Shown one piece after another: positions 4,873 to 11,077 of a stretch of 64,000 nucleotides of DNA; within the stretch, counting starts at the first letter, position 1; each line of letters begins with the position of its first letter. Location of the stretch: NCBI GenBank assembly GCA_019058315.1, contig JAHPZH010000001.1, positions 96,001 through 160,000 of the forward strand, in the 5' to 3' direction. The DNA comes from Candidatus Helarchaeota archaeon. Lineage in GTDB: Archaea > Asgardarchaeota > Lokiarchaeia > Helarchaeales > RDOG01. The notes below the pieces were generated by a model that was given only the letters and a program-made list of their open reading frames with translations, was not told the DNA's origin and made no database searches. Made by a program: the position numbers and the translations under genes.

Positions 4873-5565
4873 TCATACCTTTAAATCAAAAAACAAGTCA
4901 ATTCCATATTTATCATAAAGCTCATCAATCAGGTAAATCAATGGGTTTAAATGACTTTTATAACGATCCCAAACAAGATGAGTTGTTTTTTCTCTTCTTT
5001 GTGCAAAATGTAAGAATCCCTCGCTATCAAAACATGGATCTTTTGGTCGGGGCGTTACTTGAATCGTAGGAGGAACATCTGGATATTCTGCATTGAATAA
5101 AATTTTCGAAACTCTTACCACACCATCTCTCCATTTAGATGATACATAAATACCCTTTTCCGGGCGTTTTTTATCTATGTATTTCCATTCACTACCGTTT
5201 ATTTCCACTATGTATTTTAGATGGGTTTTAAACAACTCAGTTCCACTTTTAATTTTACTAGAAATACTCCCACCTATGGGTTCCGGAATCCAGTATATCT
5301 TATCTGTGTCTTGTGCTATTTCCCCTATCGTGTTGCGAAGAGATATTGGTACTTTTCGACCTTGTGTAATATAGTAAAGTTTTATTGTTAGCATGTTAAT
5401 TCCGACGTTTCTAACATTGCCATATCCTAAATTTAAAACGTCTAAGATTCGATCATTATATTTCCATAATAATCTACTGGCAACATCCCTGATAATCTCA
5501 TCTTCTTGAGATTCAACATAATCTGTGGTCCCAATAAGTGGATTAACCCAAGTTATTTCTTTCAA
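4873..5565 (-). CDS. ubiquitin-like domain (ending PEPIGG, aa 99) fused to an E2/UBC-fold domain
   Basis: aa 1-99 align with the ORF at 6522 (DKIYWxPEPIGG). The C-terminal part has UBC-like 'ILFNAEYPDVPP' and aligns with the ORF at 6870. Confidence 0.7.
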   Translation of the reverse strand: MKEITWVNPLIGTTDYVESQEDEIIRDVASRLLWKYNDRILDVLNLGYGNVRNVGINMLTIKLYYITQGRKVPISLRNTIGEIAQDTDKIYWIPEPIGGSISSKIKSGTELFKTHLKYIVEINGSEWKYIDKKRPEKGIYVSSKWRDGVVRVSKILFNAEYPDVPPTIQVTPRPKDPCFDSEGFLHFAQRREKTTHLVWDRYKSHLNPLIYLIDELYDKYGIDLFFDLKV

Positions 5566-5640
5566 TGTGTTTCCGTCTTTAATTTATTATCAATTATTTA
5601 GAAATTAAAATTAATATTTATAAATTAGGTTTTTAATTTG

Positions 5641-6405
5641 ATGAAAAGATTTTTCTTTGGTCCTGTTCTTTCTCGTAGATTGGGTTTTTCTTTAGGGATT
5701 GATATATTACCCGATAAAAAGACTTGTACTTTTGACTGTCTTTACTGTGAAATAGGAAAAACTCGACGAGTTACCTCCCCAAAAACCCGTTCTCCTTTCC
5801 TAATAGAAAATAAAAAGAATTTTGAATTACAATTAAGAAATATCTTATCTCAAGATATATTAATCGATACATTAACATTTGCAGGATATTCGGGTGAGGC
5901 AACATTAAATAGTGAATTAAATACATTTTTAAACATTACAAAATCTGTAAGATCTGACCTGCATAAAGAAAATATCCCAATATCCATTTTGACTAATTCC
6001 TCAACAATTAATTTTCCTGAAATTAGAAAAATATTAATGAATTTTGATAATATAGTTGCGAAATTAGATGTTGGAAATCAAGCTTCTTTTATGAAGGTGA
6101 ATCGTCCACATTTTTTAGTTCCACAAATTTCTGATATTATAAATGGTTTAAAGCAATTAAGGGAGGAGCTTGATAAGAATCGACTCGTTATTCAGACTCT
6201 TTTGTTTAGTGAAAATAATGATAGAAAAAACATTGATTCATTAATTGAAGCTTACAATATTATCAATCCAAATAAAATTCAACTTTACTCGATTGCCCGT
6301 CCACCCGCATATGCCGTAAAAAAAATAGATGGGCTTCAATTGGAACAGATAAAAAAGAATATGCAAGATGTATTAAAAACCAATATTAAAATTGAAACTT
6401 ATTAA
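5641..6405 (+). CDS. radical SAM Fe-S oxidoreductase (COG0731-like)
   Basis: FGPVLSRRLGFSLGIDI N-terminus, CTFDCLYC motif, LTNSS, AKLD. Confidence 0.85.
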   Translation: MKRFFFGPVLSRRLGFSLGIDILPDKKTCTFDCLYCEIGKTRRVTSPKTRSPFLIENKKNFELQLRNILSQDILIDTLTFAGYSGEATLNSELNTFLNITKSVRSDLHKENIPISILTNSSTINFPEIRKILMNFDNIVAKLDVGNQASFMKVNRPHFLVPQISDIINGLKQLREELDKNRLVIQTLLFSENNDRKNIDSLIEAYNIINPNKIQLYSIARPPAYAVKKIDGLQLEQIKKNMQDVLKTNIKIETY

Positions 6406-6521: not shown

Positions 6522-6830
6522 ATGCCAGAAATGACATATGTCTGCCCGCAAATAGGTAGTACAGATTATTTAGATTATGAAGAAGATACGACCTTCGAAG
6601 ATCAAATAAATGAACTAAAAGAGAAATATTTACGAGATATTCTTGATTACGTTCAGCAATTTCGAAATATACGTCAAAATATAGGATTAGATCAAATTAC
6701 TGTAAAGATACACTATATTGATGCTGAAGGTATCAAACAAACAATTGGACTTAAAACTTACGTTAAGGCAATGGCTGAACGTCATATTGATAAGATATAT
6801 TGGGAACCCGAACCCATTGGAGGGCATTAA
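6522..6830 (+). CDS. ubiquitin-like (beta-grasp) modifier precursor ending in GG-H
   Basis: 102 aa, C-terminus YWEPEPIGGH*. Paralogous to the N-terminus of 4873..5565, and near E2, JAB and E1 genes. Confidence 0.7.
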   Translation: MPEMTYVCPQIGSTDYLDYEEDTTFEDQINELKEKYLRDILDYVQQFRNIRQNIGLDQITVKIHYIDAEGIKQTIGLKTYVKAMAERHIDKIYWEPEPIGGH

Positions 6831-6869: not shown

Positions 6870-7232
6870 ATGCAGCAAACTTCTAAACAAATCTTTGCAA
6901 GTCATATTTACGATTTGACAGTTCGACCCGGTTATTATCGCTCTACATGGAAACTAATTAATAAAAAAATACCCTTAAAAGGAGCTTTCGGTCATTTTAT
7001 GGGCAAGGATTTTCGAGTAATTGTAATAAAAATCTTATTTAATTCAAAATATCCCGAAAATCCTCCAAAAATTATTAGCACTCCTCCTATCCGCGATGTT
7101 TGTTGGGATAATAAGGGTGTGTTACATTGGGCTAGATACGGGGGAGAGTTTGTATGGAGTAAATATAAAGATCACTCCAATCCATTAATTTATGTCGCAG
7201 ATGAAATTACTGAAAAATATAAAACCATGTAA
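6870..7232 (+). CDS. E2/UBC-fold protein with non-canonical active site
   Basis: 'IKILFNSKYPENPPKI' UBC signature, DVCWDNKGVLH in the HPN...C position, W..Y...NPL followed by a terminal helix. Has its own GAGG SD. Confidence 0.7.
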   Translation: MQQTSKQIFASHIYDLTVRPGYYRSTWKLINKKIPLKGAFGHFMGKDFRVIVIKILFNSKYPENPPKIISTPPIRDVCWDNKGVLHWARYGGEFVWSKYKDHSNPLIYVADEITEKYKTM

Positions 7233-7256: not shown

Positions 7257-8834
7257 TTACTTTTTAATTATTATTGCCACTAACACTAGAATTACTATCG
7301 CCATAGCACCAATTATTATCAAGAGAATAAGAGGATCAATTGGAAAACCCGCACCTGTCGGTATAGGTATAAAATTATCCATAGGTTCTGTAGACACTAA
7401 TGAAACTTTTTGTGCATATATATCATAATCACTTAAGCTTCTATTATCCTGCCACGTTATGATAGCAACTCCAGAACTAACGTAAATAATCTCATGATTT
7501 TCTTGCAAACCATATTCTGTACATACTGGCAGACCCTTACCAACATATTGCAAAATACCATTTTTATCGAGCATTTGTGCATAGATTGATCCATTAGCAT
7601 CTTCTTCTTTATCTATCCAAGAGATAAATGAATTTCCTGAGGAGTCGCAGCAAATCCTAGACTGTTGTTGATCACTGGGTGAAGTACAAACAGGGGTACC
7701 ATTATTTCTCCATAATGTGGTGCCTATTGGGTTAATTTTTTGAGTATAGATATCCTCCTCATAAATATTTCGTAAATCCTGCCATGTAATAATTGCATTT
7801 CCCTCACTATCACAGCAAATTTTTGGATAGAATTGGCTATATTCTGCTGTACAAATTGGTGTGCCATTGAGAGTCCAATAAACAGTACCAGTTGAGTCGA
7901 TTTTTTGTGCATATATATCTGTATATGTACCGTTTCTATTATCCACCCAAGTGATAATTGCATTACCAGAACTATCACAGCAAATATCAGGCCAATATTG
8001 ACTGTCAGTTGCATTACAAATTACAGTACCATTGTCTTGCAATTGTGAATGACCTGTAGAATTAATAAATTGACAATAGATATCGTTATCTGATGTTGTC
8101 ATATTTCTATAGTCTTGCCAAGTAATAATTGCGTTTCCTGCACCATAAACACTAATTTTTGGAAATGTTTGGATGTTTATAGCATTGCAAATTATTTTTC
8201 CGTTAGTTGTCCATTGGACAACTCCACTCGAATTAATTCTCTGGGCATGGATATTAGATGTTGCAAATTCATCATTTATCCATGTAAGAATCGCACCGCC
8301 TAAATTATCGCTGCAAATTTCTATCCTTGATTCATCATTAGGCAAACCAGTAATTTGCACACCGTTGGCAGTCCATTGCGTAATCCCGTTTGCGTCCACT
8401 CTTTGAGCTTTAATATTTTGAGTATCTTCCCATGCGATGATTGCCCCCCCAGAACCATCAGAACATATCTGGGGAAGAGTTTGAGAACCAGGAGAGTTAC
8501 AAATTAATGTGCCGTTAACATCCCATAATGGATTCCCATTTGAATCGATTCTTTGAACATAAATACTAGAAATGTCTCTGGAATCCGCCCAAGTAATAAT
8601 TGCACCACCAGTTCCATCACTGCATATTTCAGGATTATATTGGTCTTGTGGCGTTTGTACACATACAGGTGTACCATTAGCTGCCCATTGCGTACTTAAA
8701 CCATTAGCCTTGAGTTTAGATTTCTCATCAATTTTTAAAAGTAAGACATTTTGATTGCTAAACCCTGTATATGAATTTATAGCTAAAATGGAAAACATCA
8801 AGATTGGGATTAAAATTAAAAACCTTTTCTTCAT
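7257..8834 (-). CDS. membrane-anchored secreted beta-propeller repeat protein
   Basis: N-terminal signal-like segment, eight ~55-60 aa repeats (P.ICxDxxG.AIITW.D...DIYAQK), C-terminal TM helix followed by KK. Confidence 0.75.
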   Translation of the reverse strand: MKKRFLILIPILMFSILAINSYTGFSNQNVLLLKIDEKSKLKANGLSTQWAANGTPVCVQTPQDQYNPEICSDGTGGAIITWADSRDISSIYVQRIDSNGNPLWDVNGTLICNSPGSQTLPQICSDGSGGAIIAWEDTQNIKAQRVDANGITQWTANGVQITGLPNDESRIEICSDNLGGAILTWINDEFATSNIHAQRINSSGVVQWTTNGKIICNAINIQTFPKISVYGAGNAIITWQDYRNMTTSDNDIYCQFINSTGHSQLQDNGTVICNATDSQYWPDICCDSSGNAIITWVDNRNGTYTDIYAQKIDSTGTVYWTLNGTPICTAEYSQFYPKICCDSEGNAIITWQDLRNIYEEDIYTQKINPIGTTLWRNNGTPVCTSPSDQQQSRICCDSSGNSFISWIDKEEDANGSIYAQMLDKNGILQYVGKGLPVCTEYGLQENHEIIYVSSGVAIITWQDNRSLSDYDIYAQKVSLVSTEPMDNFIPIPTGAGFPIDPLILLIIIGAMAIVILVLVAIIIKK

Positions 8835-8949
8835 TTTTAACAAATCCAATTTTTATTAAAATATATCAAATATACTGAGGTTATAACATATAAATTGGAG
8901 TAATAGTTCATAGAGAAATAGAATAATTAAGTTAGAAAGTCGTGTAGAA

Positions 8950-10023
8950 ATGCGAGTAATTATAGATTCGTCGGTAATTGAATCATGTAAGCAAACAATT
9001 CAAGAATGTTATGGTGAAAAAGCGTTTAAAGAAGTAGGGGGGTATATTTTAGGAATGTTTGACGGCGAAAATTTCCAAGTTAAATCCCTTTATCTTGATA
9101 AATATGCTGAATCGACTTCTATCAGAATTAAACTAAGCGTTGATGCATTCCATGAAGTTGAGGAAATACTTTCCCAATCTCCTGAAATGATGTATATTGG
9201 GACATGGCATGTTCATCCTGGGACAGATAAACCCGCATACTCAAATGTTGATGTTTCAACTCTATTTTTAGAACGGGTAATTATAGACACAGATAATCCT
9301 GAAAGTTTGAAATGCCCAAAGATTCATATAATTTTTAATAATTCTCTAACTGAATATAGTTGTTATACTATGGATATATTTTTTAATTTTTTATGCGAAC
9401 CTCTTGATTCATCTGTTGCCAAAAATTTAGTTGAAGCTGAATTGCTTGAAATTGGGCTAGATGCCCTTACGGAATCTAAAACCTTGCTAAAACTAGAAAC
9501 TCTTGAAAGTTATATCAATTTACAAAAAAATATCGAAGAAGTGTATAATAATCTCGATTTAATTTCTGACCAAATCAATTTTGCACTTGACTTTTTTAAT
9601 GAACTTGAATGGTATAATAAAGTTGAAAATAAAATCGAAAAAATAATTAAGAATGAGATTAAAAATGGAGAAAGAATTGGAGTAATCTCTTCTGAAAACG
9701 AGAAAAAAATCGAAAGCTTGAAATATAGACCTAAGAATATAAAAAATTCATATACAGATGGATCTTTAGTAGGTTTTTGGGTATTATTTCCATACGAAAG
9801 TATCAGCGATATGTTTTTGAAAATTTTTTATGCTAATTTCTTCAAAAAAATTGAGACTGAACCTGGAGATGTCTTCTTATTCTTCCTAGTTCAAAAAATT
9901 AAGGAAGAAATCATGATTAAACCGTTTTTTTTAAATTTCACATCATTTGAAGGAATATCATATATAGAATTAGAAATGACTTTGATTGAGGATGACAATG
10001 AAAATAATGTTTCAGAATCCTGA
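8950..10023 (+). CDS. JAB/MPN+ (JAMM) metalloprotease with C-terminal extension
   Basis: EVGGYILG and GTWHVHPGTDKPAYSNVD (E...HxH...S..D). Confidence 0.85.
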   Translation: MRVIIDSSVIESCKQTIQECYGEKAFKEVGGYILGMFDGENFQVKSLYLDKYAESTSIRIKLSVDAFHEVEEILSQSPEMMYIGTWHVHPGTDKPAYSNVDVSTLFLERVIIDTDNPESLKCPKIHIIFNNSLTEYSCYTMDIFFNFLCEPLDSSVAKNLVEAELLEIGLDALTESKTLLKLETLESYINLQKNIEEVYNNLDLISDQINFALDFFNELEWYNKVENKIEKIIKNEIKNGERIGVISSENEKKIESLKYRPKNIKNSYTDGSLVGFWVLFPYESISDMFLKIFYANFFKKIETEPGDVFLFFLVQKIKEEIMIKPFFLNFTSFEGISYIELEMTLIEDDNENNVSES

Positions 10024-11077
10024 TACGGGTGAAACAATATATATCGAGGATGAGGAGCTTCTTATCAGAGATATTGCCAATAAAATAATGAAAGAATACA
10101 ATCTAGAAAAACCACCAATCTTCTTCACCCTTATGAAAGAAGACCCAGTATCAGAAACTTATCTAGAAGAAGATGATAAATTAAAAACAATTAATGAAGA
10201 AAAATTGGATGTAAAGACACCAATATGGTGGCGATCGTCAGAAATTGATCTAGATTTAATTTATAAACTTCGAACAGAACGCTATGATAGATCGGGTTAT
10301 GAGCTAGAAAAAATCGGAAAAACCAAGGTATTAATTGCAGGTGTGGGATTATTAGGAGCGGATATTGCGTTTGATTGCGCAGTTTTAGGAATAAAGGACC
10401 TTACAATAATTGATTATGGGTCTGTAGATTGGTTTAATATCTATCGACAAAGTCTCTATTCCAAAAAAGATGTATTTAAATCGAAAGTTGAAGTGGCAAA
10501 AGAAAATCTCGAGGATATGGGGGGTGTAAATGTTAAATCATTAAAAATTGAGATTCCAAGTTTTATTTATCTGCCAGAAGATAAAAGTATAATACAAAAT
10601 TCCATTTTAAAAATTGAGCCTGAAGTTAAAAAATGTGATATAATAATTACTGCTCTTGATACATTCAGCGCTAGAATGATAATGCAAACTTTAGCTTTAG
10701 CAAATGATAAAATCCTTATTAATACGGCGGCTGGTCTAGTAGGTGGGGTAGTTCAATTAGTGAGAATTAAGCAAAATGATCCTTGCTTGGCATGTGGTAT
10801 TTATTTTGATAGAAATCAAGATGTGGGTGCGTGCACTTTGGCATCGTTTGGTACTCCTAAAATCATATCTGGAATTACAATGGAAATTTTGACAAATCTG
10901 ATTGAAGAAAGAGAAATCAAATATAACCATTTTAAATATATTCCCCAAACTTACCAAATAGAACAAAGTAATTTTATAAAAGGCAAAGAGTTCTGTGATT
11001 TTTGCGATAGGGAGAAAGGAATTATATTTAAATATAAAAATGGAGAAAAAAAAGCCCTAATTGATTGGTTATATTGA
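9998..11077 (+). CDS. E1-like (ThiF/MoeB) adenylating enzyme with N-terminal Ubl-like domain
   Basis: GVGLLG, DYGSVDWFNIYRQ, SKVEVAK, DTFSAR, two Zn CxxC motifs (PCLAC, FCDFC) and a candidate catalytic Cys (VGACTL). Overlaps the JAB gene. Confidence 0.88.
   Translation: MKIMFQNPDTGETIYIEDEELLIRDIANKIMKEYNLEKPPIFFTLMKEDPVSETYLEEDDKLKTINEEKLDVKTPIWWRSSEIDLDLIYKLRTERYDRSGYELEKIGKTKVLIAGVGLLGADIAFDCAVLGIKDLTIIDYGSVDWFNIYRQSLYSKKDVFKSKVEVAKENLEDMGGVNVKSLKIEIPSFIYLPEDKSIIQNSILKIEPEVKKCDIIITALDTFSARMIMQTLALANDKILINTAAGLVGGVVQLVRIKQNDPCLACGIYFDRNQDVGACTLASFGTPKIISGITMEILTNLIEEREIKYNHFKYIPQTYQIEQSNFIKGKEFCDFCDREKGIIFKYKNGEKKALIDWLY

Follow-up and report, generated by a model that had tools for sequence, protein, structure and literature searches.

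In eukaryotes, the ubiquitin-fold domain (UFD) at the C-terminal end of E1 binds helix 1 and the β1-β2 loop of E2. The few known routes by which minimal E1s reach their E2 comprise the canonical UFD, the N-terminal domain of Atg7, the C-terminal peptide of UBA5, and the Zn-loop region of BilD. BilD contains an inactive and an active adenylation domain with a CYS insertion, lacks a UFD, and is bound by E2 near its C-terminal Zn loop (bioRxiv 10.1101/2023.09.26.559546). In the Bub system, BubAB is a fusion of a ubiquitin-like protein (Ubl) with E2 that is cut by a JAB peptidase, BubCD is a JAB-E1 fusion, both E1 and E2 are devoid of catalytic cysteines, and a further component, BubE, is a DUF6527 protein (PMC11601596). 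ThiF proteins with an N-terminal Ub-like domain, for example that of Campylobacter jejuni, are found beside free ThiS, and a role distinct from that of the free carrier was inferred for this domain (Iyer, Burroughs and Aravind 2006, PMC1779556). Here we report on an E1 encoded in a stretch of 64,000 nucleotides from a Candidatus Helarchaeota archaeon (contig JAHPZH010000001.1, positions 96,001 to 160,000; this whole stretch is called the window), which carries at its N terminus a conserved, GG-less paralogue of its cognate Ubl. The features of the window that are needed for the argument are the following.

9998-11077, plus strand: E1, 359 amino acids (aa), the open reading frame (ORF) of which starts MKIMFQNPDTGETIYIEDEELLIRDIANKIMKEYN
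9998-10250, plus strand: N-terminal β-grasp domain (NTD) of E1, residues 1 to 84, without GG, assigned from AlphaFold2 (AF2) modelling, structural searches and hhalign
10251-11077, plus strand: adenylation (ThiF) domain and C-terminal tail of E1, with the Pfam ThiF match (E of 3e-31) at residues 103 to 307
8950-10023, plus strand: JAB/JAMM peptidase of 357 aa, extended at its C terminus by a large segment, matched by PADLOC JAB models
6522-6830, plus strand: free Ubl, 102 aa, with the C-terminal end EPEPIGG-H, a β-grasp protein by AF2
6870-7232, plus strand: minimal UBC-like E2, 120 aa, assigned from the family alignment and weak PDB profile matches
4873-5565, minus strand: Ubl-E2 fusion (second copy), 230 aa, with GG at residues 99 and 100 followed by the E2 domain

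The NTD comprises residues 1 to 84 of E1, and the position that an earlier note on this DNA, made from the letters alone, had given for it (9998-10250) is correct. The homologues of E1 begin at the same MK(I/V)xFQNPD, and PIWW, close to the end of the domain, corresponds to residues 75 to 78. The NTD is joined to the ThiF domain by a short and strongly conserved junction, RSSE (3.5 to 3.7 bits). The possibility that the NTD is a separate small gene was rejected, given that the frame is open throughout and that all homologues share one architecture.

The AF2 model of residues 1 to 88, calculated with a supplied alignment, reached a predicted local distance difference test (pLDDT) score of 91.4 and a predicted template modeling (pTM) score of 0.81. 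Its secondary-structure elements follow the order β-β-α-β-β-α-β (β1, residues 3-6; β2, 13-16; α1, 23-34; β3, 41-46; β4, 49-55; α2, 62-68; β5, 76-79). The top 50 matches obtained with this model in a Foldseek search against the PDB are all ubiquitin-fold domains, led by the RING1B RAWUL chains 3ixs, 3gs2, and 3h8h and followed by ubiquitin, FERM-F1, RA, and PB1 domains, with template modeling scores of 0.56 to 0.71. The same was observed in an exhaustive VIA-align search, where the top 50 are again all ubiquitin-fold domains and the best match has a Z of 9.7 and a root mean square deviation of 2.2 Å over 74 residues. As modelled, the NTD is a ubiquitin-type β-grasp domain, and the different fold that the earlier note had named as the outcome contrary to its proposal was returned by none of AF2, Foldseek, and VIA-align.

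The searches made with sequences were less specific. Pfam identified ThiF alone in the E1 of the window, with no match in the first 100 residues, and single NTD sequences gave weak Pfam matches to RA_2, UBX, and TUG-UBL1. A hidden Markov model (HMM) of the NTD run against PDB sequences produced insignificant matches only (E of 0.3 or worse), several of which are ubiquitin chains aligned in a collinear register. The ESM Atlas search returned mostly RA- and ubiquitin-domain proteins, and the ESM Atlas feature search gave zero usable matches with the NTD and with the Ubl.

The set of E1 homologues contains 53 sequences, nearly all of about 360 aa and mostly from metagenome-assembled genomes (MAGs) of Helarchaeota and Lokiarchaeota. 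Overall, the NTD occurs in about 50 E1 homologues, single chains of the type JAB-NTD-E1 among them, and at full coverage in about 45, at identities down to about 30% and with bacterial-labelled MAGs included. A sample of 301 genomes of the phylum gave strong NTD matches in 3 only, all of which belong to the window's own order.

The resemblance between the NTD and the cognate Ubl family was explored at the level of sequence, profile, and model. In a BLASTP comparison, E1 residues 1 to 95 and the Ubl half of the Ubl-E2 fusion share 41% identity over 34 residues (pairwise E of 2e-6), where residues 3 to 35 of E1 pair with residues 4 to 37 of the Ubl half. The match of the NTD to the free Ubl (6522-6830) is weak (E of 0.18), and the fusion-type Ubl (4873-5565) is the sequence of the window that is closest to the NTD. 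For the profile-profile alignment of these segments, which the earlier note had proposed, cognate Ubls were extracted from the eight related loci compared in this work (L001 to L008). A k-mer-based search for further Ubl homologues gave 2, and an exhaustive search gave 48, about half of which are long multi-stretch repeat proteins that were treated as spurious.

The hhalign comparison of 26 E1 NTDs with 12 Ubls gave a probability of 88% (E of 3.4e-6) over 38 columns, which cover β1, β2, and α1. With 35 Ubls, a more diverse set that draws on the exhaustive search, the probability rose to 92% (E of 8e-7). Among 30 column-shuffled controls the best P was 0.019, and for the reversed profile the value was 0.2. 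Moreover, three disjoint subsets of the Ubls hit the NTD in one register (P of 6.7e-4, 1.2e-5, and 1.6e-5), with the fusion-type Ubls (P of 1.2e-5) matched better than the free type (P of 6.7e-4). With the third and most divergent subset, the alignment reaches 68 columns and contains a 17-residue insertion on the Ubl side. The global alignment of the NTD with the Ubl is collinear and brings PIWW onto KIYW. A second "Ubl-like" match inside the E2 domains was discarded as an artefact, these domains scoring 0.2 bits or less.

The AF2 model of the free Ubl (pLDDT of 90.3) displays the order of elements found in the NTD, to which a further helix and loop are added after α1. This extra segment (Ubl residues 37 to 58) is absent from the NTD and sits exactly at the insertion of the profile alignment. 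The Foldseek matches of the Ubl model are RAWUL, PB1, FERM-F1, ubiquitin, and the bacterial Ubl 8tyx, and the leading PDB chains (3ixs, 3gs2, and 3h8h) are shared with the NTD model. The two differ at their ends. The C-terminal ends of the Ubls all read (Y/F)WxxxP(I/L/V)GG, with GA in one case, and are followed by 1 to about 20 residues or by the E2 domain; the NTD ends in ...PIWWRSSEID, which runs straight into the first ThiF helix, and has no GG conjugation tail.

Some results set limits to this relationship. The Ubl HMM misses E1 in the six-frame proteome of its own genome and found no E1 among 1.84 billion representatives, the NTD HMM misses the Ubls, and the similarity between NTD and Ubl is insignificant beyond about 38 to 68 columns. 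Since HMM-to-sequence searches do not pick up a similarity of this strength, the claim of homology rests on the profile-profile scores, the shared fold, and the shared context. On these grounds the NTD is a conserved paralogue of the cognate Ubl that lacks GG and has been built into E1, and the resemblance that had been read from the letters is borne out by BLASTP, by hhalign with its controls, by the fold, and by inspection of the tail. The NTD would thus be a degenerate copy of the substrate Ubl in which the extra helix and the PxGG tail were lost and which, with the loss of that tail, could be neither activated nor cleaved off.

The adenylation domain of E1 contains the GxGxxG motif, and as there is a single ThiF domain, E1 is expected to be of the homodimeric type. 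Its closest solved relatives are the C-terminal domain of ATG7, MoeB, ThiF, and UBA5. Two invariant CxxC pairs (C263/C266 and C333/C336) presumably form a Zn site, and C279, located in GACTLA and invariant among the homologues, is the presumed catalytic cysteine.

In the E2 family, YPxxPP is invariant and Cys78 is near-invariant, being present in 19 of the 20 sequences. The E2 profile retrieved UBC E2s only from the PDB, and did so weakly (E of 0.008 to 0.03). Neither the free Ubl nor E2 gave any match to Pfam, NCBIfam, or PADLOC families. The JAB peptidase is matched by Cap3-type PADLOC JAB models down to an E of 1.6e-10 and weakly by the Prok-JAB Pfam family, and the motifs EVGG...HVHPG...SNVD are visible in its sequence. 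It is presumed to be the enzyme that processes the Ubl tail and the fusions.

The related loci show that these genes belong together. Ubl, E2, JAB, and E1 are contiguous in four Helarchaeota MAG contigs (L001, L002, L003, and L006), and two bacterial-labelled MAGs have the order (Ubl-E2 fusion)-JAB-E1. The module tolerates insertions at differing junctions. In the Helarchaeota contig L004 (7876-9950), two unrelated genes, of 379 aa (on the minus strand) and 225 aa, split JAB from E1, and in a second such contig, L005 (3294-5427), JAB and E1 are also set apart. Within the window, two further genes are interspersed.

7257-8849, minus strand: repeat-rich membrane-anchored protein, located between E2 and JAB, the "propeller" gene of the earlier note
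5638-6405, plus strand: radical-SAM gene, located between the Ubl-E2 fusion and the free Ubl

The first of these encodes 530 aa with hydrophobic segments at the N and C termini and about eight repeats of the motif C(S/C)D..G.AIITW.D, and has no Pfam match. It is not found between E2 and JAB in L001 to L006 and thus lies outside the conserved module. A homologue of the radical-SAM gene is present in L003 and not in the other related loci.

The synteny across the Helarchaeota contigs identifies the split locus of the window as one module. The earlier note had argued that the resemblance of the NTD to the Ubl ties the JAB-E1 pair to the Ubl and E2 genes across the intervening gene; the connection stands by virtue of the synteny, but is shown far less directly by the NTD itself.

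The window holds two Ubl/E2 sets, one fused and one separate, for a single JAB-E1 pair. Identity between the two copies is 41% for the Ubls and likewise 41% for the E2s. The other six Helarchaeota loci have a single Ubl/E2 set within about 10 kb. Outside the window, the same genome contains a second E1-like ORF of 353 aa (contig C10, 102913-103971, minus strand; E of 4.5e-28 to the E1 profile) in which the NTD match is absent. About 2 kb from it, an ORF at 105840-106547 (plus strand) matches the E2 profile weakly (E of 0.0085), and from sequence this pair may represent a second conjugation system. Beyond these, the genome has at least six more ORFs of the ThiF type.

The same module was found in bacterial-binned contigs, with E1 identities of 31 to 57% (L007 and L008, labelled Cloacimonadota and Gemmatimonadales, and L002, labelled Deferrimicrobium). 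These bacterial-labelled copies reflect either horizontal transfer or mis-binning, and L002 looks like a Helarchaeota contig. Only the four genes are common to the loci, around which no conserved fifth gene or defence island was found, and in the loci compared the module has neither an E3 nor a target gene as a conserved neighbour. The patchy distribution, taken with the bacterial copies, points to a module that is accessory and mobile.

These observations bear on the proposal that the NTD serves an outside partner, such as a substrate, the proteasome or Cdc48, or a membrane partner, as a generic adaptor of the ubiquitin fold, with its likeness to the Ubl reflecting common descent only. Ubiquitin-fold domains are widely used as adaptors, the top structural neighbours of the NTD include UBL, RA, and FERM-F1 adaptors, and the lack of a conserved E3 or target gene next to the module also speaks for this proposal. 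Nevertheless, the module also occurs with an intact NTD in bacterial-labelled MAGs, which means that any such partner should accompany the four genes, and the prediction of an NTD-E2 complex described below passed its controls. We consider such an adaptor role very unlikely.

Gene fusions provide a further view of the module. JAB, NTD, and E1 form in-frame single chains in P0109 to P0114 (672 to 693 aa) and in P0055. Further Ubl-E2 fusions homologous to 4873-5565 include P0066, P0069, and P0072, among others. In P0075 (659 aa), Ubl, E2, a linker, and JAB form a single chain in which the active-site cysteine of E2 is replaced by serine (DPSW).

The JAB-E1 chains and the arrangement in the window, where the 3' end of the JAB gene overlaps the start of E1 by 26 nucleotides, raise the question of whether the NTD mimics the Ubl so as to dock JAB, or its large C-terminal domain, on E1, as a noncovalent equivalent of the JAB-E1 fusions of Bub (6E) systems. 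JAB enzymes bind their Ubl, and related systems fuse JAB to the N terminus of E1 (BubCD, PMC11601596; P0109 to P0114). In the fusions found here, however, the NTD is intact between JAB and E1, that is, where JAB is already covalently attached. This indicates that the NTD is not merely an attachment for JAB, and docking of JAB appears quite unlikely as its function.

To assess the interaction of the NTD with E2, we used complex prediction, as the earlier note had also suggested. Both partners were given as self-built alignments, which makes the calibration only a rough one. The median interaction prediction score from aligned errors (ipSAE) was 0.67 (0.75, 0.64, and 0.67 in the three runs), against 0.00 for the best control; for comparison, 58 of 80 solved complexes attain the mark of this pair, as do 2 of 110 mismatched pairs. 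At least 91% of the contacts are common to the runs, and the pLDDT of the partners is at least 87.

On the NTD side, the predicted interface is formed by residues 4-13, 45-53, and 70-77, on the sheet face that matches the hydrophobic patch of ubiquitin. It takes in the near-invariant Q6, T10, D71, and P75 and overlaps the β1-β2 segment that the NTD has in common with the Ubl. The NTD residues of the interface are conserved above the rest of the domain (3.23 versus 2.69 bits; permutation p of about 0.012). On the E2 side, the predicted contacts involve residues 28, 30, 40, 42, 47-56, and 69-72, and the N-terminal helix (residues 5-20) is not used. By alignment to UBE2L3, these residues lie on strands β1 to β4, the "backside" opposite Cys78. 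The predicted contact is thus probably of the backside type and not of the UFD type.

Two considerations temper the prediction. The interface residues of E2 are not conserved above the rest of E2 (p of 0.77), and the outcome may reflect the memory of the model for solved backside complexes of ubiquitin or SUMO with E2, those of ubiquitin being abundant among solved structures. For this latter reason, the NTD-E2 prediction is taken as support, short of proof. The proposal of the earlier note that the NTD is an N-terminal analogue of the UFD is therefore retained in part. A contact with E2 is predicted, with passed controls, and the origin is probably separate, but the predicted contact is with the backside of E2 instead of the surface used by the UFD, and the E2 interface is not preferentially conserved.

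The NTD could also act within E1, without recruiting E2, either by packing on its own or the partner adenylation domain, where it would have a structural, dimer-stabilizing role, or as a pseudo-substrate that gates the Ubl surface. In complexes of E1 with Ubl, the β1-β2 loop lies on the E1-binding face of the Ubl, and β1-β2-α1 is precisely the part of the NTD that is most Ubl-like. The very short and highly conserved RSSE junction suggests that the domain is held in place and does not swing, and N-terminal Ub-like ThiF proteins coexist with free ThiS in systems without E2 (PMC1779556). Against such a role stand the NTD-E2 prediction, which passed where the controls gave zero, and the lack of a tail with which the NTD could reach the adenylation site. 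A role confined to E1 is, in our assessment, unlikely.

Docking of E2 by way of a backside-type contact is the best-supported function of the NTD, and on the strength of the modelling we favor it tentatively, at slightly less than an even chance. In such a mechanism, JAB would first trim the tail of the Ubl or cut the Ubl-E2 fusions, which would expose GG. The ThiF domain would then adenylate the Ubl and take it onto Cys279. In a third step, the sheet face of the NTD (the β1-β2 loop QNPDTGE, β3-β4, and D71-P75-I76-W77, just ahead of and within β5) would hold the backside of the E2 β-sheet, which would leave the Cys78 face free to receive the Ubl.

Recognition of E2 by E1 is known for few systems, and here a four-gene, apparently complete cascade, present in Asgard archaea, with scattered occurrences in bacterial MAGs, and with no conserved E3, seems to use a decoy copy of its substrate for this purpose. 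If confirmed, this would constitute a fifth solution to E2 docking. It would also make duplication of a Ubl with fusion to E1 a recurrent route to E2-recruiting domains and provide a compact, tractable system for E1-to-E2 transfer, made of an E1 of 359 aa, an E2 of 120 aa, and a small Ubl. Our literature search found no paper on the Helarchaeota module or on the function of such N-terminal domains, an earlier description in the E1-superfamily literature being possible. The presence of an N-terminal β-grasp domain on E1-like enzymes as such has precedents, namely the proteins reported in PMC1779556 and the Bathyarchaeota protein P0056.

The ThiF proteins of the Campylobacter type resemble the E1 of the window in that a Ub-like domain precedes the adenylating Rossmann domain and a separate free Ubl or ThiS coexists with it. 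Those proteins are, however, found in thiamine or sulfur operons without E2 or JAB, whereas the NTD is part of a full cascade and resembles the Ubl that is conjugated.

A parallel is provided by the Bathyarchaeota operon L009 (771-2860), which encodes ubiquitin (PF00240), a UQ_con E2, the E1 P0056 (PF00240 and PF00899), and a Zn-ribbon protein. The N-terminal domain of P0056 resembles the ubiquitin of its own operon (26% identity over 47 residues; E of 6e-7), has no GG, and is encoded next to E2, which shows that the theme of a Ubl-like N terminus on E1 recurs. This domain does not, however, align with the Helarchaeota NTD, and the two sequence families are unrelated. The operon also differs in its canonical UQ_con E2, its PF00240 ubiquitin, and its Zn-ribbon neighbour, and no JAB was seen on the short contig. 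One reading of this parallel is that E1s have repeatedly incorporated a disabled version of the cognate Ubl as a handle for E2, at least twice in archaea (Helarchaeota and Bathyarchaeota) and through backside contact, which we regard as doubtful. If true, repeated capture would offer a living model for the origin of the UFD, and this in a lineage near the ancestor of eukaryotes, and the same contact between Ubl and E2 backside would later have served the building of ubiquitin chains.

Compared with BilABCD (types I and II), the order Ubl-E2-JAB-E1 is that of BilA to BilD, and the Ubl has a tail that follows Gly, the removal of which by JAB is presumed here. The presumed Zn site made of two CxxC pairs is a feature that E1 shares with Bil and Bub. 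The E1 of the window differs from BilD in having one ThiF domain in 359 aa and the β-grasp NTD in addition. As in type I Bub (6E) systems, Ubl-E2 and JAB-E1 fusions occur in the module family of the window; in contrast with Bub, the cysteines of E1 (C279, invariant) and E2 (C78, 19 of 20) are conserved, and the β-grasp NTD is again an extra. Among the neighbours of the module, no DUF6527 protein (BubE) was found. Membership in Bil or Bub was thus rejected on account of the single adenylation domain, the conserved cysteines, and the lack of DUF6527 among the neighbours.

The predicted mode of contact is closest to the backside binding seen in UbcH5-Ub and Ubc9-SUMO, where, as proposed for the sheet face of the NTD on β1 to β4, E2 is held away from its catalytic cysteine. 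The difference is that the NTD is covalently part of E1, and the predicted contact would recruit E2 instead of promoting the building of chains.

Like the eukaryotic UFD, the NTD is a nonconjugatable β-grasp domain built into E1, for which the docking of E2, shown for the UFD, is predicted. In contrast, the NTD is found at residues 1 to 84, before the ThiF domain (103 to 307), whereas the UFD is C-terminal to the active adenylation domain. The NTD specifically resembles the cognate Ubl and belongs to an E1 with one adenylation domain, and a short conserved junction takes the place of the flexible hinge of the UFD. Given that the NTD is located at the opposite end of E1 and has no special likeness to the UFD, the simplest reading is that it arose independently. 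Finally, the UFD binds helix 1 and the β1-β2 loop of E2, and the NTD is predicted to bind the backside. As proposed from the modelling, the NTD would resemble the UFD as a module that docks E2, differing from it in position, in origin, and probably in the surface of E2 that it would engage.

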